This document shows, piece after piece, positions 21,524-50,223 of a stretch of 64,000 bases of DNA. Every line of letters starts with the position of its first letter. The first letter of the stretch is position 1. Position numbers and translations under genes: made by a program. The stretch is from an uncultured Deferribacteraceae bacterium (GTDB taxonomy: Bacteria; Chrysiogenota; Deferribacteres; CAMZNJ01): NCBI GenBank assembly GCA_947313855.1, contig CAMZNS010000032.1:1306-65305 (forward strand). The letters are read 5' to 3'. Below the pieces are notes generated by a model. That model did not search any database and had not been told where the DNA came from. It was given only the letters and a program-made list of their open reading frames with translations.

Positions 21524-22603
21524 ATGACTGTTAGTGTTAGAAACGATGCAAAAAGAATACTCATCTTTAACCCCTCGTTCCTTGGCGACACTGTGCTGAT
21601 GACCCCATTGGCACAGTGTCTTAGTACCCTCTACAAGGATTCCGAAATATGGATCTGTGTTCGCCCCGAAAGCAAGCCTTTAGTGGACAACATACCCGCT
21701 GTTCACGGCGTCATTGTTTACGACAAACGGAACAAACAGAAGGGGTTTGCAAAATCTATCGCATTTATCAAAACACTTCGCAGCTACAACTTCCATCTTG
21801 TTTTAGGACTACACCTCTCATTTCGCTCAACATACATCATACGGGGACTAAAATCAGAATCCACCACCACTGTTGGGTTCCACGAAGGCGTAATGTCCAA
21901 AACCTACGACTTCCGTACAGCAAAATACACCGACGACGCCAAACATGAAGTTGAACGTTACCTCAACATTATCCGCTGCCTTGTCACCCCAAACTCGTTT
22001 CAAATGGCGGACGCCAAAGAACTGGCAGGCAAATGCCAAGTCTCCATCGACACCACCCTCGCCAACAACATCACAGAATACGTCGCAACCCTCAAACACA
22101 GCACCCTCGTAGGCATTGCACCCTTCTCCGCATGGAAAACCAAAGAATGGCCCATGGAAGGATACGCTTGGCTCGCACGACAACTAACTCTACAAGGACA
22201 CCTTGTGTTCCTATTCGGCGAAACCCGACACACGATTCAGGGTGAAGAGTTTCTGAAGCTGTGCATGGTCGATGTGGTCAACCTCATCGGCGTTGTGGAT
22301 ATTCAGGGTGCCGCAACATACATCCAAGCCCTCGACCTGCTGATTACCAACGACACCGCACCCATGCATATTGCCGCGGCTGTTGACACCCACGTTGTTG
22401 CCATGTTCGGACCAACCGTCCCCCACCTAGGCTTCCTCCCCTACACCGACAAATACACCCTCTTCGAAAACATCAACATCAACTGTCGCCCCTGCACCAT
22501 GCACGGTTCCGAGCTTTGCCCGCAAGGACACTTCAAATGCATGGAAGATATCCACCCACAGCGCGTCTACAACGCTGCCCAAGAGGTTTTGAGCCATGTC
22601 TAA
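21524..22603 (+). CDS. Glycosyltransferase family 9 (ADP-heptose:LPS heptosyltransferase-like)
   Basis: The N-terminal motif is ILIFNPSFLGDTVL. The C-terminal nucleotide-sugar pocket is TNDTAPMHIAAA. A C-terminal Cys/His cluster is present. Confidence 0.8.
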   Translation: MTVSVRNDAKRILIFNPSFLGDTVLMTPLAQCLSTLYKDSEIWICVRPESKPLVDNIPAVHGVIVYDKRNKQKGFAKSIAFIKTLRSYNFHLVLGLHLSFRSTYIIRGLKSESTTTVGFHEGVMSKTYDFRTAKYTDDAKHEVERYLNIIRCLVTPNSFQMADAKELAGKCQVSIDTTLANNITEYVATLKHSTLVGIAPFSAWKTKEWPMEGYAWLARQLTLQGHLVFLFGETRHTIQGEEFLKLCMVDVVNLIGVVDIQGAATYIQALDLLITNDTAPMHIAAAVDTHVVAMFGPTVPHLGFLPYTDKYTLFENININCRPCTMHGSELCPQGHFKCMEDIHPQRVYNAAQEVLSHV

Positions 22604-23759
22604 CAACAACTGCAACTACGACAACAATTCCCATCGAAACAGTGCCGAACAACACGATCCCATGTCGCCCAACCTCCTCTTCATCCGATTCAGCTCCCTT
22701 GGCGATGTACTCCTCACAACAGGGATCATCAAAGCCGCCCACGAAGCCCTCCCCCACGCAACAATCTCAGTCATCACCAAAAGCGAATACTACCACATTT
22801 ACGACGCATGCCCATTTGTGGACAACATCTACACCATACCCAACGGTGTCAGGTTCACCTCCTACCGCCGCCTGCTCCGCCATATCCGCGACAATATCAC
22901 CTTCCACTACATCATCGACCTACACAGCAACACTCGCTCCCACATGCTCGGCATCTGTTTCCGTTCCGCTCGTCTCAAGAAATACAAAAAGAATAGCTTC
23001 GCACGACGTCTCTACGCTAAAACCAAGATAAAGCTTCCCAGTATCGGTAAACATGTTGTTCAGAAGTATTACGCCTGCCTCTACACCACCCTTAAACCCC
23101 TACACAACAGCATTCCTGAGGGGAAACTGCCCCACCCTAAACAGGTCTCCCTCGAGTACCTTGCCCCCCATATCCACAGCGTTGGCAAGCTGAGTAAGGA
23201 GGTTCTCAAGGAGGTGTCGAAATTTTCCGATCAGAGTCGTCCATCGGTTGTTCTAGCCCCTTTTGCGAGCAAGCACACAAAACATATTCAGAATTATACA
23301 CATATTATGCGTAGCCTTGCCGCTGATTACAATGTTGTTCTTGTTGGCGTTTCACACGACTACTCCCCGCTGGACATGACCCTGTATGCCCCCAACAACA
23401 CCACAACTATTGTTGATCTTGTGGGGCGTCTTGAGATCCCCGACCTACTCCAGATTATCAGTACTGCGAACGTCGTTGTTAGTGCCGATTCGGGTATCAC
23501 CCATGCTGCTTCAGCGTTGCAGATCCCCCTTGTGACACTATTTTGCGGAACGGATACGCTCCTTGGGTTTGCCCCGTCGTATGGTATTTACGAAATCCTC
23601 GAGATAAACACCCTGAGCTGTCGTCCATGCAGTATTCATGGTAGGTCTAAGTGTAAGCTTGGCGATTTCCCCTGCTCGACCGGCATCACCCCCGCCATGG
23701 TTATGGAGACGGTTTCCCATGTTATTCAATATAAATATAGGGCACACATGCCGTCCTAG
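22596..23759 (+). CDS. Glycosyltransferase family 9 (second heptosyltransferase-like paralog)
   Basis: The N-terminal motif is LLFIRFSSLGDVLL. The C-terminal motif is SADSGITHAASAL. A CRPC...C..C motif is present. The likely start is the ATG at 22662. Confidence 0.8.
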   Translation: MSNNNCNYDNNSHRNSAEQHDPMSPNLLFIRFSSLGDVLLTTGIIKAAHEALPHATISVITKSEYYHIYDACPFVDNIYTIPNGVRFTSYRRLLRHIRDNITFHYIIDLHSNTRSHMLGICFRSARLKKYKKNSFARRLYAKTKIKLPSIGKHVVQKYYACLYTTLKPLHNSIPEGKLPHPKQVSLEYLAPHIHSVGKLSKEVLKEVSKFSDQSRPSVVLAPFASKHTKHIQNYTHIMRSLAADYNVVLVGVSHDYSPLDMTLYAPNNTTTIVDLVGRLEIPDLLQIISTANVVVSADSGITHAASALQIPLVTLFCGTDTLLGFAPSYGIYEILEINTLSCRPCSIHGRSKCKLGDFPCSTGITPAMVMETVSHVIQYKYRAHMPS

Positions 23760-23935
23760 GAGACGGTTTCCATACGGTTTCCATACGGTTCCCATATTGT
23801 TCCCATATTATTCAATATAAATATAGGGCACACATGCCGTCCTAGGAGACGGTTTCCATACGGTTCCCATACGGTTCCCATACGGTTCCCATATTGTTCA
23901 ATATAAATATAGGGCACACATGCCTATTAATCCAC
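23690..23935. repeat. Threefold direct repeat of the 3' end of the GT9 gene (unit TTCAATATAAATATAGGGCACACATGCC plus GGTT(T/C)CCATAC sub-repeats), followed by (CCCTATTG)4 at 23938-23970
   Basis: Direct reading. The first copy contains the native stop codon. Copies 2 and 3 lie downstream of it. Confidence 0.85.
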
Positions 23936-24099
23936 ATTTTGCCCCTTCCCTATTGCCCTATTGCCCTATTGCCCTATTTGATAAATTTCCCTTGATTTTT
24001 TTTGCAATACTCTTTATAGTTATTAACTAGTGATTATTAGTTTGATTTTTCAAACAAACTGTACTATTTTATACATAGGTGCTGTTTATTATTTTTTTT

Positions 24100-24173
24100 C
24101 GGGGCGTGGCGCAGCCTGGTAGCGTGCACCCTTGGGGTGGGTGAGGTCGCTGGTTCAAATCCAGTCGTTCCGA
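24100..24173 (+). tRNA. tRNA-Pro (anticodon GGG)
   Basis: A manual cloverleaf was built. The 7-bp acceptor stem is CGGGGCG/CGUUCCG with two G-U pairs. The D arm is GCGC/GCGU. The anticodon stem is CACCC/GGGUG with loop UUGGGGU. The T arm is GCUGG-UUCAAAU-CCAGU. The discriminator is A. No CCA is encoded. Confidence 0.85.
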
Positions 24174-24331
24174 TTTATTTTAAAAAATAGTTAATTGCAA
24201 ACATAGTAACCGTTTAAATTAAAAAATAAAAAATATTGCAGATACTTGTTAAGTTTTTGAATATTGCTACGATATACTAATTGTAGACACCACTCCACTC
24301 GCCTTGAGCCCTGTAGCATGGAGGCTATCTT

Positions 24332-25411
24332 ATGAAAACAACAACCCTTACGCTGTTTGCCGTTATCCTAGTGCTCGTATTCTCTCCACTAACCGCAAAA
24401 GCAACCTTTATCGCCCCCACTGCAACCATAAACAAAAAAACCACCCTCGGTCCCAACGTACAAATACTCGATTATGTCAGAATTTCCAAATCGGCAAAGG
24501 TGCTCGACAGTGCCTCAATTGAAGGGTTCTCCGAAATAGGCAAAAAAGTTGTCATTCGCAATAACGCCATCGTCTCTGGAAGCTCACGGGTGCTCAGTGG
24601 CTCCACTGTATCCAATAACGCCAAAATCCTCAACAACAGCTATGTCAAAGACGAATCCTCTGTCGCCGGATCCAGCACCATCGATGGCACATCATCCATC
24701 GAATCCCAATCACGCATATTCGGCAGTGTATCGATTAGTGGTAGCGTCCGTGTTATTCAAAAATCCACTGTCCGAGACAAAGCCACCGTACAAGACTCTG
24801 TTATTGTCAAAAAAGGCTCCACCGTACGAGACAATGCCCGCGTAAGCGGTAGTGCCGTTATCGACAAACGATCCATCATCAGAGACAACAGTACTGTTGG
24901 CGGTACTAGTCGCGTACGCGGTGCCATCATCCAAAACAACGTCGCACTCTACAACGCCTCCTTCGTAAACGGCAGATCCGTGGTCATCAAAGACTACGCC
25001 ACACTCTACGACTACGCATATGTTGCCCACAACGCCTCTGTTGCAGGACGTGCCACACTCCGTGACAGCGTTCGCGTTCTCAACAATGCCAAAATATACG
25101 ACATGGCAACACTCTCAAACTCCGCTGAAGTTCGCGACAATGCCAAAGTTTACGGCAAAGCCTCCCTAAGCGGTAGCACCATCGTTGAACAAAATGCCAC
25201 CGTCTCCGGCAATGCACAAATTATCGGCAATGTTCGTATCTCCGGCAATGCAAAAGTATCCGGCAATGCACAACTCTCCGGCAACCTTATCATCACTGGT
25301 GATGCTGTGATTACTGGTGATGCTATCATTAGTGGCACGATGGTTATTCGCTCAGGAACTATTACCGACCGGTACACAGGCGAATTCGTTCGGAGCTTTA
25401 CACCGCAGTAA
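24332..25411 (+). CDS. Secreted left-handed beta-helix (hexapeptide-repeat) protein of unknown function
   Basis: A Sec signal peptide is present (MKTTTLTLFAVILVLVFSPLTAKA). It is followed by more than 40 consecutive [LIV]-x-G/N-x-A-x hexapeptide-type repeats (ISGNAKVSGNAQLSGNLIITGDAVITGDAIISG). Confidence 0.6.
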   Translation: MKTTTLTLFAVILVLVFSPLTAKATFIAPTATINKKTTLGPNVQILDYVRISKSAKVLDSASIEGFSEIGKKVVIRNNAIVSGSSRVLSGSTVSNNAKILNNSYVKDESSVAGSSTIDGTSSIESQSRIFGSVSISGSVRVIQKSTVRDKATVQDSVIVKKGSTVRDNARVSGSAVIDKRSIIRDNSTVGGTSRVRGAIIQNNVALYNASFVNGRSVVIKDYATLYDYAYVAHNASVAGRATLRDSVRVLNNAKIYDMATLSNSAEVRDNAKVYGKASLSGSTIVEQNATVSGNAQIIGNVRISGNAKVSGNAQLSGNLIITGDAVITGDAIISGTMVIRSGTITDRYTGEFVRSFTPQ

Positions 25412-25454
25412 AAAGTCTCGCAACGCCGTCGATTATCAGTCGTAATGAGCAATA

Positions 25455-25575
25455 CTGTTGCGAACAACACACCGCCTCCCGCACCGCCTCCCACACCGCC
25501 TCCCGCACCGCCTCCCACACCGCCGCTCACACCGCCTCCCACACCGCCGCTCACACCGCCGCCCACACTGAGAGC
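25455..25575. repeat. Intergenic tandem 15-mer CACCGCCTCCCRCAC, about 8 copies
   Basis: Direct reading. It generates a spurious Gly-rich minus-strand ORF. Confidence 0.85.
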
Positions 25576-25626
25576 TAATAACATCAAATAATCGTACTGA
25601 ATTGTGACAGTACTAGGGGTTTTCGT

Positions 25627-26781
25627 ATGCCTTACAGCGATGAGCGTAACCAGCATGAACATAGCCATAGCCATAACCATAACCATAGTAATCGTGGCGA
25701 ACTTGTGTCCAGCCTCCTACCTGTGCACATCGTTCATACTGCCGACACACTCTCCACAGCGATGGCTCATGCCGTCATGGAGCACATAACGCGTATGGTT
25801 CATGAGAGCTCGACCGTGAACGCACCCGTGAACACACCCGCGAACACGAGCTCGCCCGTGAACAACACACCCGTGAGCACGAGCTCGCCAACAAATAGCA
25901 CTGATAACACTAGCAACACTGACAGTCGCATTGTTGTCCACCAATGTATTCGCGACTACGACTTCTTCCAACATATCACACATATTGCCACCAGCATTGC
26001 CAATCCATCCGTTAATGGGTCTATCATCGCAATCGACATGCACGGGATTCAGAGCTTCCACGCCGCCGTTGCTGTGCCCGGAATAGTTTCTGCACAGTGC
26101 TACGACGAGTTTACCAGCCAAATGACACGTGCACACAATGATGCCAAATGTATTACCCTTGCGTCGTCCATACTGTCGCCAAGCCTAGGGAGTCGCATTG
26201 CTGAGTTGTTCCTTACGACAGAGTTTGAGGGTGGGCGACATGCCGACAGGTTGAGGCTTCTTCATGGCATCCGGAGCAGTGCGACCGCGACCGCGACCGC
26301 AACCGCAACCGCAACCGCAACCGCAACCGCAACCGCAACCGCAACCGCAACCACGTTGATTGCCATCGGTTGCGATCACAGTGCACTCCAACACAAGAAT
26401 GAGATTAAGGCATACATCGAAGGGATGACGGTTCCGGGTAGCTCGAGTCATGTTTGCAAAGTTGTGGATGTTGGCACAAATACCACTGAAAGTGTACATT
26501 ACCCGAACTATGGGGAGGCAGTGGGTCGCTTGGTTGCCTCAGGCGAGGTTCACCTAGGGATTGTAATTTGTGGCACAGGTGTGGGGATAGTGAATGCTGC
26601 GAGCAAGGTTGATGGCGTGCGTAGCACCCTAGCGTTACACCCTAGCACGGCATACATTTCGCAATCGATGTACAGCTGCAACGTACTCGCCATAGGTGCA
26701 CGTACGACAGGTGTGGGTGTGGCGTTGGAGCTTGTTGAGTCGTTTGTTACGTCATGGCACCAGTATCGCCTAGCCCACTAG
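25627..26781 (+). CDS. rpiB: Ribose-5-phosphate isomerase B (RpiB/LacAB family) carrying an N-terminal partial duplication, a His-rich leader and an (Ala-Thr)12 linker
   Basis: The C-terminal 150 aa is a complete RpiB (IAIGCDHSA...GIVICGTGVGIVNAASKV...NVLAIGARTTG). Residues ~130-220 repeat the second half of RpiB, including the C-terminal signature FLTTEFEGGRHADRL. Confidence 0.7.
   Translation: MPYSDERNQHEHSHSHNHNHSNRGELVSSLLPVHIVHTADTLSTAMAHAVMEHITRMVHESSTVNAPVNTPANTSSPVNNTPVSTSSPTNSTDNTSNTDSRIVVHQCIRDYDFFQHITHIATSIANPSVNGSIIAIDMHGIQSFHAAVAVPGIVSAQCYDEFTSQMTRAHNDAKCITLASSILSPSLGSRIAELFLTTEFEGGRHADRLRLLHGIRSSATATATATATATATATATATATATTLIAIGCDHSALQHKNEIKAYIEGMTVPGSSSHVCKVVDVGTNTTESVHYPNYGEAVGRLVASGEVHLGIVICGTGVGIVNAASKVDGVRSTLALHPSTAYISQSMYSCNVLAIGARTTGVGVALELVESFVTSWHQYRLAH
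26281..26355 (+). repeat. In-frame hexanucleotide repeat (GCRACC)12 encoding (Ala-Thr)12 inside rpiB
   Basis: Direct reading. Confidence 0.9.
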
Positions 26782-26859
26782 AGCTAACTTGGTTAGTGCA
26801 TCAGCTACGGCGATGGCGTCGTCATGGCACCAGTATCGCCTAGCCCACTAGAGCTAACT
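26750..26859. repeat. 39-nt direct repeat (GTCATGGCACCAGTATCGCCTAGCCCACTAGAGCTAACT) duplicating the 3' end of rpiB downstream of its stop; copies at 26750-26788 and 26821-26859
   Basis: Direct reading. The second copy abuts the flgH stop codon on the opposite strand. Confidence 0.85.
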
Positions 26860-27657
26860 AAACGGCCAGAGCCAGTCTACAACTTTGCTGAATAGCCCTG
26901 TGTTCCTCGTATCAGAGATCATCCCTTTCCCGGAGTAGCTAATCTGTGCGTTAGCGATATTTTGCGATGAAACCACGTTGTTTGCGTTAATATCTTTGGG
27001 ACGAATCAGTCCTCGAATGGACATTATCTGCTTCTCATTATCCACAACAATTTCACGGTGCCCTTCAATTACCAGATTGCCTGATGGTAGTACTCGCAAA
27101 ACTGTTGCTGCGATTGTTGCCTGTATCTGATCTTGCCTTGTGTTTGAGCCTTGCCCGGCAAAAGATGACGTGTACTGCGTGCCTAGGTTTGGCGAAAAGC
27201 CCACTCCACTGCCGAGGAAGTTTGTTATGCCAAGGTCGAGTGGCAGTCCTCCCAGTGCTGTTGCCGAGGCTCCCACGGATGAGGTTTTCCCCGTTGTTGC
27301 ACTCCCTGTGTTGGTTGCGGATGATGATTCTGAAATGATTACGGTAATAAGGTCGCCCACTTGTCGTCCTTTGTAGTCGGCAAACAGGTCGCTTTTGTAT
27401 TCGTTATTTGCCCACAGTGATGCTGTACGCGAGGATTTTTGTGCAACTTGGTTATCGTAGTCTTCCATGAGAGCCACGTAGTCCACGGATGGTTCGAATG
27501 CCACACTGTCTGTGTTTACGCGGGCACATCCCCCCAGTGGCAATAGCATCAGCGACGCCAACGCAACCGATGCAAGCACAGAAACCTTTTTCAGATTCAT
27601 CGTAGGTGTATGGTTGGTTATGGTTTGTGGGATGGTAGTAGTTTTTGTGTTAATCAT
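26854..27657 (-). CDS. flgH: Flagellar L-ring lipoprotein FlgH
   Basis: The lipobox is LLPLGGC. FlgH signature regions are GDLITVIISESSSA and LRVLPSGNLVIEGHREIVVDNEKQIMSIRGLIRPKDI. The likely start is the internal Met at 27600. Confidence 0.85.
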   Translation of the reverse strand: MINTKTTTIPQTITNHTPTMNLKKVSVLASVALASLMLLPLGGCARVNTDSVAFEPSVDYVALMEDYDNQVAQKSSRTASLWANNEYKSDLFADYKGRQVGDLITVIISESSSATNTGSATTGKTSSVGASATALGGLPLDLGITNFLGSGVGFSPNLGTQYTSSFAGQGSNTRQDQIQATIAATVLRVLPSGNLVIEGHREIVVDNEKQIMSIRGLIRPKDINANNVVSSQNIANAQISYSGKGMISDTRNTGLFSKVVDWLWPFS

Positions 27658-28970: not shown

Positions 28971-31900
28971 CTAAATATAGTTCATTAGGGATAGACCTAG
29001 TATTCTGCTTGTTGCTTGCAGTGCTGTTTCGTATATCAGCATGGACTGTTGATAGTTATTCGTTATGTTGTAGATATCGTTTTCGGTAGATCCTAGGTAG
29101 TTGGATCGGAACTGTTCTAGGTTGAGGTTTATCCGTTCGTTAAACGATATCTGGGAGCTTACAATATTCCCTCTGTTACCTATATCGGCATAAATGCTAT
29201 TTACCTGAGAGGCAATTTTGTCGAATATGTCAATTTCCTGTTGTACTCCTGATCCGAGTGCGGTGGTGAAGTTGTTGCCACGCATTACACTCCCTGAGTC
29301 GAACCCCAAGGAGATTCCGTCTGCTACGAAATAGTTTTGGTTGGCAGTTTTGATGTTAATGTTGTCCACTATTCTGCCTGCGGAATCGGTAATGGCAACG
29401 CTCAAGGACTCCCCTGCACGTGCAAACCCTAGCACTATGTTGTTTTCAGCCCTTGGATCGTGGTTCCCCTCGACAAACCCCACTGTTGTGTTGGCTTTGT
29501 TGACCACAAATCCAAACCCTTTATCCCCTGTGCGTACGGCGGTGAAGAATGTGTCAAGACCGGCTGTGGCAAGCTCTGTTGCCAGATCGTCCATGAGGTT
29601 GTTGAAGCCTGTGGTGCTGTAGTCTTTGTTGGGGATGGTAATGGATTGTGTCTGTACTTGCGTCCCGACCATGTATCGGAAAGTTAGTGTTCGTTCGTCC
29701 ACAGATGCTTTTGACAGATCGAGGCTTACCATGTCTGCAACGGGGCTGATGAGGTCAGTACCTTTGTATCCTACGCCTAGGGGGTTGTTGGGGGAGGCGG
29801 ACAGATACCCTGTGCCACTAGTGTACGTTGGCGTAATGGTGTCGCCACTACCTGCAAACGTTATCAGTGTATTGAGCACTGCTGAGGCTGATATCTGGTT
29901 GTTTATCTCTGTGGCGAGTGCATCGACGTCGCCATAGTTGTTGGCTGGTATGGTGATGGTGTCGCTCACCCAAGTATTTGTTCCGAGGTCGAAGGTTTTG
30001 ATGGTCATATCTTGTGCAACGGCAATATTTAGGTTGACGGGGAAAGGATCCCCTGTTGGCTTCCCCGCATCGAGGGCAATAATTGCCGCATCACTTTGTG
30101 CCGCTAGGTTTATGTTGCTTGTGCCCGCCCCAGACTTTACCACGAGGGTGCCACCATTGTCGTGTGCTACTATCCCTACTGCTTTGAATGCGGGGTCGTT
30201 ATTGATTGCGTCGATGATAAGTTTGTTTTGCTGTTTGAGGGTCATACCTGTGGGGTAGCTTGTTGCGGGGATTTGAACGGGGATGGTGCGAAGTGTGTCT
30301 TTGTCGTTATCCCATACCTCCACGTCGAACAGGATATCGCCTAGGGCGGGGCTAACGAGGGTGGTGTTGGCGTACTCCAAGCGAAGCTCGTCTTGGAGGT
30401 ACGACTCGGGGGACGAAGCGAACTGATTAACATTGAATCCCCATGTATCGTTGTTGTAGCCGGTGTATTGCCCTGAGAAGAATGCCTTTGCGAGGAGATC
30501 GTTGTTCGGATCGAGGGCCCATTCGCTTGGTGACAGGTCGCCATTGTCGCGAACATTGTTGCTCAAGGCGTCTTCTAGGTTTTGGATGGCGTTAAATATG
30601 TTTACGTTACTGCCCTGCTCCGTAATATGCATATCCCCTAGGCGAAGGTTGTTGCCACCACTTAGTGCGATGGTGAAGTTCCTGTCCACGCCTATGTTTG
30701 CTGCATCAATGGGGGGAGTCCACGAGATCCCCTGCTTCAGATCCACAGGACCACCCTTGTAGTCGGCAACTGTACCGCTAGCTATGGGACCACCCTTTTT
30801 GCTTACGATATTGTAGGTTAAGTCGAACCGACCACCAACGTTGTCTATGCGATAGCTAACATCCCAGTCCATGTCCCCTTGACCATCGTAAGAGCCACTT
30901 ATAATTTGGTCGGTGTACCCCAACGAGCGATCGATACCTCTGTTGTCGGGGGTCATGCTCAAGGATAGGCGACTGTCGGAACCGCTGTACAAATCCTCCA
31001 CAACAATCTGACCGACGCTGTTGATGGAAACGATTGCTGAGCCGTTGTAGAAGTTGTTGGCGAAGTTGAGGAGATCCTCGAACGATTTGTTGACAGGGGC
31101 GGAGTAGTCGCGACCCAAGGTTGCACTGTGCAGGGTGCCGTTGGACATGATGGACAGGGATGTGTTCTCGCCGTAATTCTCATTCTCGAAGGTGTAGGTT
31201 ATGTCGTAAACGTCGGCAACACCAGTGGCAACAACGTGGGATTGGATGTTAAACCCTGTGTCCATACTCATCTGCTTGTTTATCATAAACTGAATATCTA
31301 ACTCTGTCGAACCCGCAGGGATAGCTAACGTGTAGTCGTTGCCGTTGATGGTGTAGTTGTATGTACCCGAAGAGAGGTTTGTGTTGGTAGCGGTTAGTTG
31401 CAAAAACTCGTTGGCACCCGGTACCGTAAACGGACGAGTCGACAGGTTGAACTCGTTATCTTTCCCGTAGGTGAGGTTCCCCGTGTAGTCCTGAAACTTG
31501 TCAAACCCCAAAGCGTTATCGATGTCGCCAAACGCTGAGAGGGAAACCTTATCCCCAACCTCATTGGTCATTATCATAAGTTGCTGTCCGTCGGCAACAC
31601 TACGCAATTCGCCAGATATATCCACAACATGGCTAGTATCTTGAGGCGTGGGGGATAGTAGGGATGACCCAGCAAACGTTGCTGTTTTCATGGCAACGTT
31701 GAAAGCGTCGGAAAGATTTTCCACACTACCATAATTCTTCGCCTCAAGCTCTACCTTGTAGTAACTACTGCCATAACGAACATAAGTAATACGTGCACTA
31801 TCAGGGAGATCGGCTAAGTTAACATTAACCTCACTGGTGCCCGACACCCGTGCATTCCCCACAGGATGACCATAATGATCGCTTGCCCGAAACTGAATCG

Positions 31901-32906
31901 CATCACCGGGACTACTCTTCACACCATCCAATCCCGAAAACACGGAGGCTAAGTTTATTGGGAGACCGCTGTAGGTGTTGAGAAACGAACTCTGCAACGT
32001 CTTGTACGTGGACATGAATAAGGAGTTGCCTGAAACATTCAATGCCACATTGGAGTTGCTCCCTATCTGCGACACGATCTCACTGGAATCACCTTTGTAC
32101 GTAATATCCGAACCCGCAACATAGGTGAAATGGTATTCGGTGAAAAGGTGCGTCGTATTTTCGGGTAGCTTTATGGCCATGCCACGACCTAGGTTGACCA
32201 CCTTGCCAGGCTCGTATGCCACTGATGTTGAGAGCATCAACTTGTTGCCGTCACTCGTTGCATCATCGCTAGAGTTGGAGTCGATGGGTACGGCATTCCC
32301 GTATTTGTCGTACAGGGTAAGCTCTGCCATACCGTTGGAAATTGTTACCCCCATGCGATAGTCGCCCTGAGGGAGCTCCCGCACGTCGCTGAATGTATCT
32401 GTGGCGAACAAAGCCCCGTCGCTGTTGTTGCTAGAGCGAATGTTCTTCACATCGTTGCTACCCTCAACAAACGGCGGTTCACCTGTGCCAAAACCACCAA
32501 AAATATAGTGATCAAGGTAATCGGTGTTGGACAAACCAACAACCTGTTGCATAATGGACTTAATCGCCGAAGCCATGGAGCTCCTATCGCTAGCACTAAG
32601 GGTATCGTTGGCACCCTGTATGGCGTAGTCGTTTTTGACAGTATTGATAATGTTCACTAGGGAACCAACGGCGGAATCCGACTCTGTCAGCCAGTGTGAG
32701 GCTTTGTCCGCATTGTCGCCATAGGATTGCAGAATATTTATTTGTTGCTGTGTTTTGAGGTAGAACGAGTAGGATCGAACGTCGTTTTCAGGGTTAATCA
32801 ATTGGCGACCATTTAAAACACGCATGTAGTCTTGTTGCATGCGTTGGTTTGTGGACTGCATATGTGCTGCCCCTGTGTTGTACAAGCTGTTGAATGTAAC
32901 TCTCAT
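28971..32906 (-). CDS. flgL: Flagellar hook-associated protein 3 FlgL, giant form (1311 aa)
   Basis: The N-terminal flagellin-like helices are MRVTFNSLYNTGAAHMQSTNQRMQQ. The C-terminal helices are QEIDIFDKIASQVNSIYADIGNRGNIVSSQISFNERIN...SRILGLSLMNYI. About 900 aa of central insertion lie between them. Confidence 0.7.
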   Translation of the reverse strand: MRVTFNSLYNTGAAHMQSTNQRMQQDYMRVLNGRQLINPENDVRSYSFYLKTQQQINILQSYGDNADKASHWLTESDSAVGSLVNIINTVKNDYAIQGANDTLSASDRSSMASAIKSIMQQVVGLSNTDYLDHYIFGGFGTGEPPFVEGSNDVKNIRSSNNSDGALFATDTFSDVRELPQGDYRMGVTISNGMAELTLYDKYGNAVPIDSNSSDDATSDGNKLMLSTSVAYEPGKVVNLGRGMAIKLPENTTHLFTEYHFTYVAGSDITYKGDSSEIVSQIGSNSNVALNVSGNSLFMSTYKTLQSSFLNTYSGLPINLASVFSGLDGVKSSPGDAIQFRASDHYGHPVGNARVSGTSEVNVNLADLPDSARITYVRYGSSYYKVELEAKNYGSVENLSDAFNVAMKTATFAGSSLLSPTPQDTSHVVDISGELRSVADGQQLMIMTNEVGDKVSLSAFGDIDNALGFDKFQDYTGNLTYGKDNEFNLSTRPFTVPGANEFLQLTATNTNLSSGTYNYTINGNDYTLAIPAGSTELDIQFMINKQMSMDTGFNIQSHVVATGVADVYDITYTFENENYGENTSLSIMSNGTLHSATLGRDYSAPVNKSFEDLLNFANNFYNGSAIVSINSVGQIVVEDLYSGSDSRLSLSMTPDNRGIDRSLGYTDQIISGSYDGQGDMDWDVSYRIDNVGGRFDLTYNIVSKKGGPIASGTVADYKGGPVDLKQGISWTPPIDAANIGVDRNFTIALSGGNNLRLGDMHITEQGSNVNIFNAIQNLEDALSNNVRDNGDLSPSEWALDPNNDLLAKAFFSGQYTGYNNDTWGFNVNQFASSPESYLQDELRLEYANTTLVSPALGDILFDVEVWDNDKDTLRTIPVQIPATSYPTGMTLKQQNKLIIDAINNDPAFKAVGIVAHDNGGTLVVKSGAGTSNINLAAQSDAAIIALDAGKPTGDPFPVNLNIAVAQDMTIKTFDLGTNTWVSDTITIPANNYGDVDALATEINNQISASAVLNTLITFAGSGDTITPTYTSGTGYLSASPNNPLGVGYKGTDLISPVADMVSLDLSKASVDERTLTFRYMVGTQVQTQSITIPNKDYSTTGFNNLMDDLATELATAGLDTFFTAVRTGDKGFGFVVNKANTTVGFVEGNHDPRAENNIVLGFARAGESLSVAITDSAGRIVDNINIKTANQNYFVADGISLGFDSGSVMRGNNFTTALGSGVQQEIDIFDKIASQVNSIYADIGNRGNIVSSQISFNERINLNLEQFRSNYLGSTENDIYNITNNYQQSMLIYETALQATSRILGLSLMNYI

Positions 32907-33034
32907 GATTTTCCGCTCCTAAAAACATATTCGTGGGTAGTTGTGTGCGAACCCCTGCTAACCAGCACTACACACCACGCCACACCTACCAACCAGCACC
33001 ACACACCACGCACACCTACCAACTAGCACTACGG

Positions 33035-34789
33035 CTACCTACCAACCAGCCCAAGCCGATTAACGATTAAGTCCAACATCTGATCAACAGCCGTAATAAA
33101 CCTTGCGTTCGCCTCATACGACTTCTGAAATTTTGTAAGATTTATTGCCTCTTCATCGAGGGAGACCCCTGTAACTGCGTCTAAGCGTACACTTACCGCC
33201 TGAAGTGAGACCAGCTTCGAGCCGGCAAAAATATCCGCCTCGTACTTCATGGCAGATATTTCCGCCACAAAAGAGGAGTAGTACGCCTCAAACGATATAT
33301 TCCCAAGCGACCCGCCAGTATTAATTCCTGACATGGCTATGGCGTTTGTATTATCGCCAACCTTACCTGACGTACCCGCCACCAAAAACCCTGAATCCAC
33401 CTGTATCTTTTGGCTTACAGAGATATCTCGCACACCTGTGCCGCTGAAAAAACTATTGAACCCCATAGCGGCCGAAAACCCCGTATTGTCGGCGGTGAAA
33501 GCGATTGTGCTGTTATCTTTACTCGACAGCACCAGTCGGTTGTCCGAATTAACAACAGCACTTATCAGCCCCCCTGAAGCATCACTAATCTTCTCCGCAA
33601 TGCTCCCGATGGAGTCGACTTTAGGGTCGATACTAATGTTAACAGTTTGCACAACCGTATTGTTGTCGTCATAAATACTCAGGGAGAACGATCCCGCCTG
33701 CATCTGAAAACTCGTATTCTCAAACGTATCACCAAGGTGCTGTTGCAACGGGAATCGAGAATCGGTAACGCTGTAGGCGGAAACAAGACTAGACTCTGCA
33801 CGCAAGTGTCGTCCTAGACCATGCACCTTGTTTGTTTCAAAGATTAGGGCACTAGCAAACGAATCTATCTGCTCGATGGTGTTCAGAAGGTTCTTGTCGC
33901 GAGAATCAAGGTCGCCGCGAATCGAGCCAGCACGTATTTGGCTAGTAATATCCACAGACTCGCCACGGGTGCCAATATTTACCCCCCGATACTTGATTGT
34001 CAGGAGCCTGTCCTGCCCCTCCCCAACCTCGGTAATAAACTTACCCGCATCACCACGATCCACAGCCACAACACCAGCGATTACGACGGCATAACTACCA
34101 TCAACACGCTCCGTTACGTTTGTTGGTGCGTAGTTAGAGATTGTCGCCACAGCCATGTCACGTTTGTCACGCAATTCATTTGCGATTGTAACCCCATCAC
34201 TCTCAATCTCCACTATTTTCAGGTTATACTGAGCAATATTTTTCAACTGCATATTCATGTCATCCACAGCGATATTAACTTTGACCTCAATATCATCGCG
34301 AACAGACTCAATATGCTTGTAGCCGTCTTGGAGCTTATCCGAAAGGGTGACAGCTTTGTTGACTACGTTGTTTCGGTTTGTCAGAGCTGTCTGGGTATCG
34401 TCTGGCGGTGTTCCCCCAAGGGTAACCCACGATTGTGTGTAGTCACTAAGGGCATCGGAGAGTCCGCCACTCCCGTCGAGTTCGTTGAAGTATTGTTGTA
34501 GGTTGCCGATGTTTTCCTGCATCGAAGACCACATGGTAAACCCCGACATTTCATGGCGAACATTTGATGCAAGGAGATCGTCGTAAACACGCTCAACACG
34601 GGTAAGGCTAGCACCTGTGCCGAACCAACCACGAGTGTCGATAGCTTCACGGGATTCGATAACAGCACGTTGACGCGAATAACCGACCGTATTGGCATTA
34701 GAAATATTATTACCTGTAACACTGATTCCTGCTTGGGCGGTGTAGAGCCCCGACGAGCCGGTGTAGAGCATTCCGAACAAAGAACTCAT
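33035..34789 (-). CDS. flgK: Flagellar hook-associated protein 1 FlgK
   Basis: The N-terminus is LFGMLYTGSSGLYTAQAGISVTGNNISNANTVGYSRQ. The C-terminal conserved helix is QKSYEANARFITAVDQMLD. Confidence 0.9.
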   Translation of the reverse strand: MSSLFGMLYTGSSGLYTAQAGISVTGNNISNANTVGYSRQRAVIESREAIDTRGWFGTGASLTRVERVYDDLLASNVRHEMSGFTMWSSMQENIGNLQQYFNELDGSGGLSDALSDYTQSWVTLGGTPPDDTQTALTNRNNVVNKAVTLSDKLQDGYKHIESVRDDIEVKVNIAVDDMNMQLKNIAQYNLKIVEIESDGVTIANELRDKRDMAVATISNYAPTNVTERVDGSYAVVIAGVVAVDRGDAGKFITEVGEGQDRLLTIKYRGVNIGTRGESVDITSQIRAGSIRGDLDSRDKNLLNTIEQIDSFASALIFETNKVHGLGRHLRAESSLVSAYSVTDSRFPLQQHLGDTFENTSFQMQAGSFSLSIYDDNNTVVQTVNISIDPKVDSIGSIAEKISDASGGLISAVVNSDNRLVLSSKDNSTIAFTADNTGFSAAMGFNSFFSGTGVRDISVSQKIQVDSGFLVAGTSGKVGDNTNAIAMSGINTGGSLGNISFEAYYSSFVAEISAMKYEADIFAGSKLVSLQAVSVRLDAVTGVSLDEEAINLTKFQKSYEANARFITAVDQMLDLIVNRLGLVGR

Positions 34790-38034: not shown

Positions 38035-38179
38035 ATTAGTTTATTCCCTGCGTGTATTTATTCGGCTACGTTGTTGCACCTTGTTAAGGGCGTTGTTTGT
38101 TGCCATGTAGTTCACAGCAATTAGTGTGCCATGGGGTGGCGGTTTGGTTAAACCAGATTGTTTGGTTAAACGCCCTTGT

Positions 38180-40159
38180 TTAGTTAAACGCCCCCGCTGC
38201 TTCGAGTATGCTTACAATGTTCACGCTATTGTACAACCCTGCCACACGCCTTGCTGTAAACCCTGCGTCGTTGGTATGAGTAACGTCGGCACCGTAAACG
38301 AGTAGTTGTTGTACTAGCTGTTGGTTGTTGTTTGTTACCCCCCATATTAGTGGTGAGTCGCCGGCAATGTTGTAGATATTCGGGTTCGCACCATTTTTCA
38401 GCAGTAGGTTGACGATGGTGAGTGAGTCGCGACTTGCGGCTAGTATGAGTGGTGTGTTCCCTTCAACATTTTGTGTGTTCAGGTTGGCACCAGCATCAAC
38501 TAGCATGGACACAATACCGTATTGATCTTGTGCGATTGCGAGGAAGATGGCGGTGTTGCCTGTTTCGTTGTCCACAATATCGGGGGAGGCACCCAACCTT
38601 AGGGCACGCTGTACTTTGGCGATGTTGCCCGTATTGGCACCATCAAACATCATGGCATTGTATTCGGTTAGTTGGCTGTAGTATTCGGAGAGGATATTTT
38701 GTATTACGGGATAGCCGTTCTGTTCAGCAATGTCGTATGCTGTGGAGCGTTCGTTGTTTTGAGTAAGTGGGTTCGGTTTGTTTTCGATAACGAGGCGAAC
38801 CATATCGAGGAACCCATTGGAAGACGCAACCATGAGTGGTGTGTTCCCGTCGGAGTTGACGATGTCGACCATGGCACCGTCGTTGAGTGCTTCACGTGCG
38901 GTGGCAATGCTGTTATTCATTACGGCAAGCATGAGGGGGGTGTTGCCTTGATTGTCTTTTGTTTCGAGGTTGGCACCGTAGTTGACTAACGTACGCATGG
39001 TGAATACGTTGTCGTTGTAGGATGCGAGGGAGAGGGCTGTTCGACCATTGTTGTCCCGTGTTTCGATATCAGTGGAGTAGGAGGCTAGTATGTTTGCTGT
39101 GGCGGAGTTGCCCACACTGGCAGCAATCATGAGGGGGGTACGCCCCTGAGCGTCCACCGTATCTATCTGTGCACCGCTAGCAATGAGCAGGTTAACAATG
39201 TCGGAGTCGCCACGGTATGATGCGTACGCCAAAACGGACATCTCTTGGTTATCCTTGCTGTTGGGGCTAGCACGAAGGCGTAGTAGCATCTCCACAACGT
39301 CTTCATGGGAGTACACAACAGCATACATGAGGGCGGTTTGCCCCCGAGCGTTGGTTCGGAAGATGTCCGCACCCTGTTCGATGAGGAATGTTGCTGTTTC
39401 GTATTGGTTGTTGGCGAGGGCGTACATGAGAGCTGTGTTGCCTAAGGCATCCACGGTGTTGATGCTCAGGGTGGACACCTCGATACTGCGAGCAAGGGCA
39501 TCAAGCTGACCGCGAGACGCCGCATAAAGTAGGGGGCTCTTAGGGGACAAACCAACATCTATGTTGACCAAACTCTTCTCTTGAACCACAGTGTAACGCT
39601 TAGTCAACGTTGCAATACTGTTGGAGTCGTCTAGGTTGCTCTTCATACCCATACGCTCACGCATACTGTAAGCGTTAGCTGAGTCCTCAATGTAGAGGAT
39701 CGTCTGAACGGTGTCGGAACGCTCACCAATGGTTTCACTCGAAGTGAGCACGTTGTCCACAACAACAAGCTTACGAAGCAGGGTTGACTGTGGTATCTGG
39801 TAAATATTGCCGTAATCGAAGTCCACCGCAATCCCGATACGATTAACATCTGTCCCCAAGGCATTGTTGTTGATGAACCACTCACCACGACGACGAACAA
39901 GATCTATGGACACGTCGCGATAACCACGCTTCTCCAAAACAACATGATAGCTGTCGCCAGAGATGCGAACCCATGAAGGGAGTGCCGCAACTTTATTGTT
40001 GATAAAATATTCAGCATTCTTTTTGGATGGTGGCTTGGTAAGGCTTCGAACATCAGACGAAAAATATGAACAAGACGCTATTATGGGCAAAATTAACATC
40101 ACCAAACCCAACTTCAAAAACCTCAACATAACAAGAACCCTCCGCACACGGACACACAA
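38180..40159 (-). CDS. Ankyrin-repeat lipoprotein (about 12 ANK repeats), co-directional with and immediately upstream of flgI
   Basis: The lipobox is LILPIIASC. There are repeated ANK consensus units (G.TALMYA....V..LL..GA..N..D..G.TPL). The likely start is the Met at 40129. Confidence 0.8.
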   Translation of the reverse strand: MCVRVRRVLVMLRFLKLGLVMLILPIIASCSYFSSDVRSLTKPPSKKNAEYFINNKVAALPSWVRISGDSYHVVLEKRGYRDVSIDLVRRRGEWFINNNALGTDVNRIGIAVDFDYGNIYQIPQSTLLRKLVVVDNVLTSSETIGERSDTVQTILYIEDSANAYSMRERMGMKSNLDDSNSIATLTKRYTVVQEKSLVNIDVGLSPKSPLLYAASRGQLDALARSIEVSTLSINTVDALGNTALMYALANNQYETATFLIEQGADIFRTNARGQTALMYAVVYSHEDVVEMLLRLRASPNSKDNQEMSVLAYASYRGDSDIVNLLIASGAQIDTVDAQGRTPLMIAASVGNSATANILASYSTDIETRDNNGRTALSLASYNDNVFTMRTLVNYGANLETKDNQGNTPLMLAVMNNSIATAREALNDGAMVDIVNSDGNTPLMVASSNGFLDMVRLVIENKPNPLTQNNERSTAYDIAEQNGYPVIQNILSEYYSQLTEYNAMMFDGANTGNIAKVQRALRLGASPDIVDNETGNTAIFLAIAQDQYGIVSMLVDAGANLNTQNVEGNTPLILAASRDSLTIVNLLLKNGANPNIYNIAGDSPLIWGVTNNNQQLVQQLLVYGADVTHTNDAGFTARRVAGLYNSVNIVSILEAAGAFN

Positions 40160-43597: not shown

Positions 43598-43731
43598 CAA
43601 CTTACGAACACAACTTACGAACACAACTTACGAACACAACTTACGAACACAACTTACGAACGCGACTTACGAACACAACTTACGAACGCAACTTACGAAC
43701 GCAACTTACGAACGCAACTTACGAACGCGAC
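43598..43731. repeat. Intergenic tandem 13-mer CTTACGAAC(A/G)C(A/G)A, about 10 copies, in the 5' region of the PHP gene and just downstream of ruvB
   Basis: Direct reading. The unit length is not a multiple of 3. Confidence 0.9.
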
Positions 43732-45005
43732 GAAGACGGTGTCCAAGGTACGCCAAGATGTGCATATGCCTGCTCAGTGGCAACCCGTCCACGTGGCGTT
43801 TTATGCACAAAACCTAAATAAATAAGGTAAGGCTCAATAACATACTCCACCGTGACCCTGTCCTCCGAAAGCATGGACGCCATCGTCTCAAGACCCACCG
43901 GTGCCCCTTTATACACCTCTATCATTGCACGCAAATAACCCACATCTGCCGTCGTAAGACCGATGGGATCAACGCCGATACGATTCATACCCTCTTGTGC
44001 GATGGACTTCGTAATCTTGCCACCATTGTAAACGTCGGCAAAATCGCGAATACGATTAAGGGTGCGAAGGGCTATGCGAGGCGTGCCACGTGAACGACTA
44101 CCTATTTCGATAGCAGCATCAGCATCTAAAGTGGCGATACTAGAACTACTCTGAGCAGCATTCAACACGATAGTAGCAAGCTCCTCATGTGTGTAGTACT
44201 CAAGACGCATAATAATGCCAAACCGATCCCGAAGGGGGGAAGTGAGCATACCAGCACGCGTTGTCGCACCAATAAGGGTGAACGGCGGGAGATCCATGGT
44301 AACAGTGCGAGCAGCAGGACCCTGACCGATGATGATGTCCAAACGGTAGTCCTCCATGGCAGGGTAAAGGAGCTCCTCAACCGATGGATGAAGGCGATGG
44401 ATCTCGTCGATAAATAAAACGTCGCCAGCGTTGAGGTTGGTCAAGATGGCCGCCAAGTCGCCCTGCTTTTCGATGGTAGGACCTGTGGTAGTGCGGATTG
44501 TGGTGCCCATTTCGTTGGCGATAATGTTCGCAAGGGTGGTTTTCCCTAACCCTGGGGGACCATAAAACAGTGTGTGATCCAACGGCTTCTCACGCCGACG
44601 CGCTGCTTCGATGTAAACCTTGAGGTTGCCAACAACATGGGACTGACCGATGTACGTGCTGAAACTTTGGGGTCGTGTGCTGATGTGTGCATTTATCGTG
44701 GGATCTGCCCACGTATCATCGGCACCGTCAGCGTCGTAACCAGAGCCGCCAGCATCGTAACCAAAGCCGTCAGCATCGTAACCCGAGCCGTCAGCATCGT
44801 AGCCAGAACCGCCAGCATCGTAACCCGAGCCGCCAGCATCGTAACCAGAACCGCCAGCATCGTAACCCGAGCCGTCAGCATCGTAGCCAGAACCGCCAGC
44901 ATCGTAACCCGAGCCGCCAGCATCGTAACCAGAACCGCCAGCATCGTAACCCGAGCCGTCGCCTTTCGTATCCCTATTCTTTTCCATGGAAGAAGTATAC
45001 CCCAT
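43719..45005 (-). CDS. ruvB: Holliday junction branch-migration helicase RuvB with an N-terminal about 16-copy (GSGYDAG)-type repeat extension
   Basis: The RuvB core has Walker [12 protein letters not shown], the motif [11 protein letters not shown] and sensor motifs. The only in-frame Met codons lie upstream of the repeat array, so the repeats are translated if the gene is intact. Confidence 0.9.
44722..44960 (-). repeat. In-frame 15-nt tandem repeat (about 16 copies) encoding GSGYDA(G/D)G at the ruvB 5' end
   Basis: Direct reading. The unit length of 15 preserves the frame. Confidence 0.9.
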
Positions 45006-45087
45006 TCCCCCCTATCTTGCAAACCATAAACGAAAAATGGGTTTGAACCCGAAAAATGACGAATTCAAACCCATAATTAAGTGGTAT

Positions 45088-45370
45088 GTTGCTTGCTTGC
45101 GTTACGTTGCTTGCTTGCGTTACGTTGCTTGCTTGCGTTGCTTGCTTGCTTGCTTGCGTTACGTTGCTTGCTTGCGTTGCTTGCTTGCTTGCGTTACGTT
45201 GCTTGCTTGCGTTGCTTGCTTGCTTGCTTGCGTTACGTTGCTTGCTTGCGTTGCTTGCTTGCTTGCTTGCTTGCGTTACGTTGCTTGCTTGCGTTACATT
45301 CCCACCCGCGTTACTTGCTTGCTTGCGTTACGTTGCTTGCTTGCGTTACATTCCCGCCCGCGTTGCCCGC
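45088..45370. repeat. Intergenic tandem array of about 18-mer GTTGCTTGCTTGCGTTAC units with GCTTGC sub-repeat variation, about 280 nt, immediately upstream of ruvB
   Basis: Direct reading. It generates several spurious Leu/Ala/Cys-rich ORFs in the track. Confidence 0.9.
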
Positions 45371-50073: not shown

Positions 50074-50185
50074 ACCATCGACCATCGACCATCGACCATC
50101 GACCATCGACCATCGACCATCGACCATCGACCACTGCCACCGAAAGCATGGCGAACATGGCGAACATGGCGAACATGGCGAACAT
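50074..50185. repeat. Intergenic tandem 8-mer CCATCGAC (about 9 copies), then 9-mer CATGGCGAA (4 copies), in the hpf-rapZ spacer
   Basis: Direct reading. Confidence 0.9.
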
Positions 50186-50223
50186 GGTGCCCAAATAACT
50201 ATAACACCGCAACGTTCATGGTT

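Follow-up and report, generated by a model that had tools for sequence, protein, structure and literature searches.

Repeats beyond the stop codons of two genes in a Rimicaris gut Deferribacteraceae genome probably reflect recent, neutral local duplication

Introduction

Why would the 3' end of a gene be found again, one or more times, directly beyond its own stop codon? The question is raised by 64,000 nt of DNA from an uncultured Deferribacteraceae bacterium (assembly GCA_947313855.1, contig CAMZNS010000032.1, positions 1,306 to 65,305 of the forward strand), which we analysed as a whole and call the window. Two of its genes end in this way: GT9-2, the second of its GT9 (heptosyltransferase-family) genes, and rpiB, which converges on the flagellar gene flgH. 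The original prediction, made from the letters alone, held that these gene-end copies are latent C-terminal extension modules, that they stem from the same slippage or template switching that builds microsatellites, and that they might alternatively act as terminators or attenuators. Bacterial minisatellites, or variable-number tandem repeats (VNTRs), arise from slipped-strand mispairing or short-homology tandem duplication. Here we argue that both repeats probably arose by recent local duplication without selective effect, in a lineage where slipped-strand or short-homology duplication is very frequent.

Results

Two gene ends recur beyond their stop codons

GT9-2 terminates at a TAG codon (23757-23759), its protein ending in ETVSHVIQYKYRAHMPS. 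The 28-mer TTCAATATAAATATAGGGCACACATGCC occurs at this gene end and twice more downstream, in exactly three places (23725, 23811 and 23897), with none expected from 100 shuffles. Tandem Repeats Finder (TRF) reports the array at 23709-23924, with a period of 86 nt, 2.5 copies and 93% matches. Thus, the repeat of ~30 nt originally described does occur three times, but the real unit is longer, comprising the last 54 nt of the gene and, beyond the stop, an 86-nt unit. The copies, which we call units A, B and C, differ in length: B and C are longer than A because an 11-nt sub-repeat, ACGGTT(T/C)CCAT, has expanded to ~4 copies in each (23763-23807 and 23849-23893). Unit A itself contains a 6-nt tandem duplication of the form AATATA, and the duplications at this gene end are nested, with periods of 6, 11 and 86 nt. 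Mismatches among the copies consist of G/A and T/C sites together with indels of the 11-mer. Neither the GT9 units nor their core motifs occur anywhere else in the 64-kb window.

The rpiB stop codon, also TAG (26779-26781), lies within a perfect 40-nt direct repeat (26750-26789 and 26820-26859) with a period of 70 nt, where none is expected by chance. The repeat had been described as the last 39 nt of rpiB recurring 32 nt downstream; it does recur once, but it consists of 40 nt (32 coding and 8 beyond the stop), and 30 nt of filler separate the copies. Termination of rpiB is supplied by copy 1. The stop codon of flgH (CTA, 26854-26856) lies inside copy 2, and therefore the 40-nt unit carries the ends of both convergent genes. 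Apart from the 6 nt that belong to flgH, copy 2 is new intergenic DNA. No other copy of the repeat or of its core motifs is present in the window. Compared with the rpiB/flgH junction of an outgroup described below, the filler has a weak 15-nt match on the opposite strand (shuffle p=0.02, uncorrected over six comparisons), of the kind that an inverted copy made by template-switch fold-back might leave. The central claim of the original prediction, that gene ends are re-duplicated after their stops, therefore stands at both loci.

Other repeats lie in and around rpiB. Its two domains are joined by a (GCAACC)11.5 array (26284-26352) that encodes an Ala-Thr repeat, a linker that differs in the sister MAG (metagenome-assembled genome) introduced below, and no canonical FEGGRH tail is present in the second domain. 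The spacer between a hexapeptide-repeat gene and rpiB holds 8.4 copies of the 12-nt unit CACACCGCCTCC (25468-25568); this array is crossed by small open reading frames (ORFs) on both strands and is 64 nt shorter in the sister MAG.

The duplications differ between close relatives

The GT9-2 and FlgH proteins have 100% identical counterparts in NCBI, encoded on a contig of 65,921 nt. The relatives of the window are Deferribacteraceae metagenome-assembled genomes (MAGs) from the gut of the vent shrimp Rimicaris exoculata (Candidatus Rimicarispirillum). We compared it with a sister MAG (GCA_947313805.1, loci L017 and L021; 95.5% DNA identity, with synteny over 21 kb) and with an outgroup of the Ca. 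R. nautilei type (M_SnakePit_MAG_00002, loci L001 and L019; DNA identity of L001, 84-87%). Two further sequences were an independently assembled locus with an outgroup-type rpiB/flgH junction (L020) and a contig from the Logan assembly of run ERR7998034 (L016). The lineages were named Ca. Rimicarispirillum atlantis and Ca. R. nautilei by Aubé et al., who used Illumina reads and MEGAHIT (PMC9636832). Judging from the levels of identity, the window probably belongs with the atlantis pair.

At the GT9-2 end, the C-terminal tail has the same length in the sister and the outgroup, and what follows it differs. The gene end is single in L001. In L017, the stop is covered by a different repeat, of 33 nt with a period of 71 and 91% identity, whose first copy runs across the stop codon. 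All three copies in the window carry the AATATA duplication, which is absent from L017 and L001, and for this reason the 86-nt units must be younger than the split from the sister. Unit C ends at the point from which the window is again similar to L017 (TATTAATCC). The Logan contig, an independent assembly, begins within unit C and supports the junction between this copy and the unique DNA downstream.

The rpiB/flgH junction varies in a similar manner. In the outgroup-type junctions (L019 and L020), the two stops overlap (GGCTAACT) as a 4-nt convergent overlap of the CTAA type, which is a common overlap type (bioRxiv 10.64898/2026.09.10.750558). In L017, the rpiB stop is spanned by an 18-nt duplication and the spacer is 20 nt, while in the window the event measures 70 nt and the spacer 72 nt. 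A microsatellite of CCCTATTG units downstream of GT9-2 likewise has four units in the window, three in L016 and one in L017. Scans of Joint Genome Institute (JGI) metagenomes with a GT9 3' pattern and a flgH 3' pattern returned no matches, and exact look-ups with GT9-2, RpiB, P0039 and P0041 of the window yielded no contig. The comparison between strains that the original prediction had proposed thus finds that copy number and structure differ across the window, L017, L001, L019, L020, L016 and L021, and it indicates frequent, recent and lineage-specific local duplication. Direct copies beyond chance and copy-number or structural differences between close relatives, the hallmarks of a tandem repeat or minisatellite (VNTR), were both found.

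A repeat-rich genome with a reading-frame filter

The two gene ends lie in DNA that is full of tandem repeats. TRF reports 66 arrays in the 64 kb, covering 5.3% of bases, and 41 of them score at least 50. At this threshold the window has 6.4 arrays per 10 kb. Most of the unrelated control loci scanned by the same procedure, Pasteurellaceae among them, have 0-0.7, and two control loci from unidentified bacteria reach 3.6-3.8. Of 57 TRF rows in coding sequence, 47 have a period divisible by 3, whereas intergenic rows split 9 to 18. The coding exceptions are mostly weak two-copy matches or fall in a doubtful ORF over a TTGC array.

The same filter is seen between strains. The window and L017 differ by 723 substitutions and 38 indels, among them indels within arrays. 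All 11 indels in solid genes are multiples of 3, compared with 4 of 27 outside solid genes. We used this mod-3 result alone, as a per-gap test for tandem copies (11/38 tandem) was too crude, the gaps being multi-unit and fragmented. The array density, the strain indels within arrays and the nested 6-, 11- and 86-nt duplications at GT9-2 bear out the proposal that one slippage or duplication process made both the gene-end repeats and the microsatellites.

Gene ends behave like intergenic DNA

Do gene 3' ends attract duplication? We asked how often a 15-mer recurs, with up to 2 mismatches, within 150 nt downstream. Such a recurrence follows 1.95% of positions in coding sequence and 10.65% of those in intergenic DNA, and it is seen at 5 of 50 gene 3' ends (10%), so that the gene-end rate is compatible with the intergenic rate (P=0.63) and incompatible with the coding rate (P=0.003). 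A strict probe, the last 20-30 nt recurring within 150 nt, picks out only GT9-2 and rpiB among 50 genes, with 0.5-0.6 expected from all positions (P~0.1). Shorter probes of 12-15 nt find 4-5 of the 50 genes against ~1.4 expected (P=0.05 to 0.0125), the additional cases being the ends of flgK, an ankyrin gene and ruvB. The original prediction had made an excess over chance its own test: there is a ~3-fold excess over the whole-sequence background (P~0.01-0.05), but none over intergenic DNA. Since the gene-end rate equals the intergenic rate, no dedicated 3'-end process is needed; the last codons and the stop tolerate duplication as intergenic DNA does.

A model for the growth of gene ends

Based upon these results, we propose that duplications of 3 to ~90 nt would arise throughout the genome. 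Those in coding sequence would persist solely if in frame, while duplications of any length could persist when the unit is intergenic, or when it starts in the last codons of a gene and includes the stop. A stop-spanning duplication would be tolerated because its first copy still encodes the complete protein, the later copies being new non-coding DNA. For GT9-2, the order of events may have been a 6-nt duplication in the tail, a 54-nt duplication over the stop, 11-nt slippage in the non-coding copy and finally duplication of the 86-nt unit. At the rpiB/flgH junction, duplication of 40 nt holding both convergent stops would have left rpiB ending in copy 1 and flgH in copy 2, with the 72-nt spacer between them; a single unit of the window type, with one 40-nt copy, would leave a 2-nt gap. 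The molecular mechanism that we infer is replication slippage or template switching, and the duplications are presumably neutral.

Several points weigh against this explanation. First, rpiB ends in an X-filler-X structure, which differs from a plain tandem duplication in its unexplained 30-nt filler. Second, stop codons are enriched 2.7-fold in arrays over random placement (7/50 versus 2.6; P=0.017). Third, the same two gene ends were struck independently in two sister strains, a possible sign of local hot spots, or of selection in place of pure neutrality. Finally, the statistics are based on 50 crudely called genes of one 64-kb window, and copy numbers in the window, which is part of a short-read MAG, carry some uncertainty.

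Alternative explanations

The recurrence in sisters could be explained if the rpiB/flgH duplication were adaptive, freeing overlapping or abutting convergent genes and lowering interference between them through the new spacer. The series from a 4-nt CTAA overlap in the outgroup to spacers of 20 nt in L017 and 72 nt in the window, reached by different duplications, speaks for this reading. However, the new spacer contains no terminator or stable structure, gene ends as a whole are duplicated at the neutral intergenic rate, the sample covers only three lineages, and another convergent pair, a radical-SAM gene and rapZ, retains a 12-nt overlap in both strains. We therefore regard an adaptive spacer as unlikely, though as the best placed of the alternatives.

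The repeats could also be artefacts of assembling short metagenomic reads from mixed strains with MEGAHIT, such that the duplications and copy numbers exist in no single genome. Proteins of the window have identical counterparts on the 65,921-nt NCBI MAG contig, the Rimicaris MAGs were built from Illumina reads with MEGAHIT (PMC9636832), and the Logan assembly of ERR7998034 breaks exactly within the third GT9 copy. Yet De Bruijn assemblers collapse repeats and do not create them, and an X-filler-X path requires reads over the filler junctions. In addition, L016 confirms the junction of copy 3 with unique downstream DNA, the separately assembled sister MAG has duplications of its own at both sites, and the arrays obey the frame rule of real biology. 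An artefact is thus somewhat less probable still than an adaptive spacer.

We give even less credence to the possibility that the repeats are 3' regulatory RNA elements, whether intrinsic terminators, attenuators or protein-binding sites in the 3' untranslated region (UTR). Their position directly past stop codons would suit such a role, as would a small hairpin at the GT9 unit junction (CCGUC-CUAGGA-GACGG) with GGA in its loop; csrA is placed nearby by synteny with L017, although a link to csrA is speculative. However, a pattern scan of both strands found no terminator-like hairpin followed by a T-run in 23700-23930 or 26740-26870, and the five terminator-like matches in the region, against 3.3 expected by chance, all lie outside both repeats. 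Fold energies resemble those of shuffled sequences, the z-scores of seven segments running from -1.55 to +0.97 and the GT9 array as a whole scoring -1.13. In Rfam, a tRNA-Pro alone reached the gathering score, and the one further match at E<=1 (HPnc0260) is outside the repeats. Furthermore, the sequence is not conserved, the sister and the outgroup having different sequence or none at these places. The suggestion that the repeats serve as terminators or attenuators is thus not supported.

The least credible reading is that of latent C-terminal extension modules, or of a phase-variable C-terminus, switched by stop loss or slippage. Read on in frame from its stop, rpiB continues as TAG-AGC-TAA-CTT-GGT-TAG, with three in-frame stops within seven codons; loss of the first stop would add one residue, and a single stop mutation therefore lengthens rpiB almost not at all. 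At GT9-2, a change of TAG to a sense codon would indeed read on for ~49 codons through units B and C, but mostly out of frame. Because the 11-mers add 32 nt, the frame changes: the repeated 28-mer is read differently, its TAG falls out of frame, and no module is encoded. More generally, periods of 86 and 70 are no multiples of 3, which puts the copies in different frames; the 11-mer arrays lie past the stop and so cannot shift the coding frame; and no extended proteins are found in the relatives (385 aa and 378 aa). This part of the original prediction is not supported, and for rpiB it is contradicted.

Other gene ends and arrays in the window

Three further genes of the window, flgK, the ankyrin gene and ruvB, have repeats downstream of their ends (Table 1). 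The ruvB end array varies between strains, with ~10 near-perfect 13-mers in the window versus ~4 degenerate ones in the sister MAG.

Table 1. Positions of the gene-end repeats and of adjoining features in the window
Feature	Position	Strand	Remarks
GT9-2 (second GT9, heptosyltransferase-family)	22596..23759	+	387 aa; ORF list; Pfam PF01075, E=1.3e-19
Unit A, coding copy	23706..23759	+	final 54 nt of GT9-2 with stop, GAGACGG...CCTAG; ETVSHVIQYKYRAHMPS*
Unit B, non-coding 86-nt copy of unit A	23760..23845	+	TRF periods 86 and 11; family D3, 95% identity
Unit C, third copy, truncated to 79 nt	23846..23924	+	own 11-mer array
Microsatellite CCCTATTG	23948..23978	+	3.9 units by TRF; varies between strains
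tRNA-Pro(GGG)	24099..24174	+	ARAGORN, Rfam; outside all repeats
rpiB, fused two-domain RpiB, 384 aa	25627..26781	+	Pfam PF02502 in two stretches; alignment with relatives
Copy 1 of 40-nt repeat	26750..26789	+	rpiB final 32 nt and 8 nt past stop; family D6, 100% identity
Filler, 30 nt, between 40-nt copies	26790..26819	.	unique in window; origin unexplained
Copy 2 of 40-nt repeat	26820..26859	+	last 6 nt are flgH final codon and stop (minus strand)
flgH, flagellar L-ring protein, convergent with rpiB	26854..27657	-	Pfam PF02107, E=3.7e-55; 100% identical to NCBI protein P0041
flgK end array, 30-nt period	32960..33037	-	last 15 nt of flgK (33035-34789, -) recur directly downstream; TRF
Ankyrin-gene end array, 18-nt x2.7	38142..38193	-	first unit holds stop of 38180-40159 (-); TRF
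ruvB end array, 13-nt x9.9	43598..43726	-	first unit is last 8 nt of ruvB (43719-45005, -); TRF

The 13-nt array of ruvB starts in the last codons of the gene and stops 24 nt short of the next start codon. At the other end of ruvB, an in-frame 21-nt array of 11 copies (44724-44958) lies in an N-terminal extension of the protein, which has 428 aa versus 386 aa in the sister MAG, where the region compared is L021 7891-9130. A long, imperfect (TTGC)n array of ~47 units (45088-45347) lies 83 nt upstream of the minus-strand ruvB start, just past the end of ORF 45370-47292 (-); the ORF that covers it (45086-45427, +) is without a Pfam hit and probably spurious. The ankyrin-repeat protein of this gut symbiont, at 659 aa, belongs to a eukaryote-like domain type.

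Elsewhere, a perfect heptamer, ACCATCG x8.6, is followed by CATGGCGAA x4.6 between hpf and rapZ on the minus strand (50074-50187). The last codons and stop of a tyrosine-recombinase (phage integrase family) gene (63-794) fall within an A-rich 10-nt array (764-795). In a very large flagellin-like protein of 1311 aa (28971-32906, -), the N-terminal flagellin domain alone is recognised, and the length is conserved in both relatives. Between 12001 and 20000, a strong bias in the composition of the plus strand (AT skew to +0.46, GC skew to -0.34) covers genes of both strands.

Discussion

Among known systems, the two repeats most resemble bacterial VNTRs, with copies of 10-90 nt placed head to tail, periods of 6, 11 and 86 nested in one another, differences between close strains, and periods that are in frame within genes and of any length outside them. 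They differ in the 30-nt filler at rpiB, which goes beyond plain slippage, and in a density of ~1 array per kb that is far above most controls. The mycobacterial interspersed repetitive units (MIRU-VNTR) of M. tuberculosis offer a further likeness: according to PMC3184786, which cites Supply et al. 1997, these are intergenic and strain-variable, with tandem units 40-100 bp long that overlap the adjacent genes at their ends, and the units of the window similarly overlap the stops of GT9-2, rpiB and flgH. However, MIRUs form one dispersed family with ~40-50 homologous loci, whereas each array in the window derives from its own gene end. The units occur at their own locus alone within the 64 kb, which argues against a MIRU-like family or any other dispersed repeat or MITE (a miniature transposable element with inverted repeats).

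As with the contingency loci of Haemophilus, Neisseria and Campylobacter, the window belongs to a host-associated bacterium and has numerous short tandem repeats with strain-to-strain variation. Unlike in those loci, the GT9 and rpiB repeats lie past the stop, where a change in copy number is unable to turn the protein on or off. The GT9-2 stop precedes units B and C and the 11-mer arrays, and a conserved promoter-like site of the tRNA-Pro (23992-24020), found by a promoter scan and comparison with relatives, is outside the arrays; we accordingly reject a phase-variable contingency locus here. A Rho-independent terminator shares the location just past a stop and is rejected because neither a G+C-rich hairpin with a T-run nor excess folding energy was found, and a known structured RNA family because Rfam has no match in the repeats.

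Repetition of a gene 3' end downstream is likewise a feature of att duplication by integrative elements and of the variable and template repeats of diversity-generating retroelements. Here the copies are 30-60 nt apart, leaving no element between them, and the tRNA-Pro is outside the repeat, which excludes the former. As for the latter, the rpiB copies are identical and the differences among GT9 copies are not adenine-specific. Pfam searches found no reverse transcriptase or integrase adjacent to the repeats, the neighbours being the hexapeptide protein, rpiB, flgH and the tRNA between them.

We thus return to recent and probably neutral local duplication. Gene-end repeats after a stop are the expected outcome of frequent local duplication together with purifying selection, and the comparison of the gene-end rate with the intergenic rate offers a simple quantitative check of this. 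In themselves, such repeats are of little importance and have an ordinary mechanism. The rpiB/flgH junction illustrates cleanly, in nature, how a duplication across two convergent stops may turn an overlap into a spacer and leave both proteins untouched.

A modestly useful side result is that the tandem-repeat density of these Rimicaris-gut Deferribacteraceae is ~10x that of most control loci; the Rimicaris genome papers examined do not mention tandem repeats. The Logan contig L016 starts and ends in repeats, and therefore arrays do break short-read assemblies. Repeat richness probably fragments the short-read assemblies of these bacteria and may create strain-level variation.

Finally, and more tentatively, it is possible that exceptionally active local duplication in this lineage keeps turning gene ends into new intergenic DNA and 3' UTRs, the rpiB/flgH spacer being the clearest case, with some strain-specific arrays as possible contingency loci. 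If true, this would provide a documented route for resolving gene overlaps and for the birth of spacers, in genomes whose repeat richness was previously unreported.

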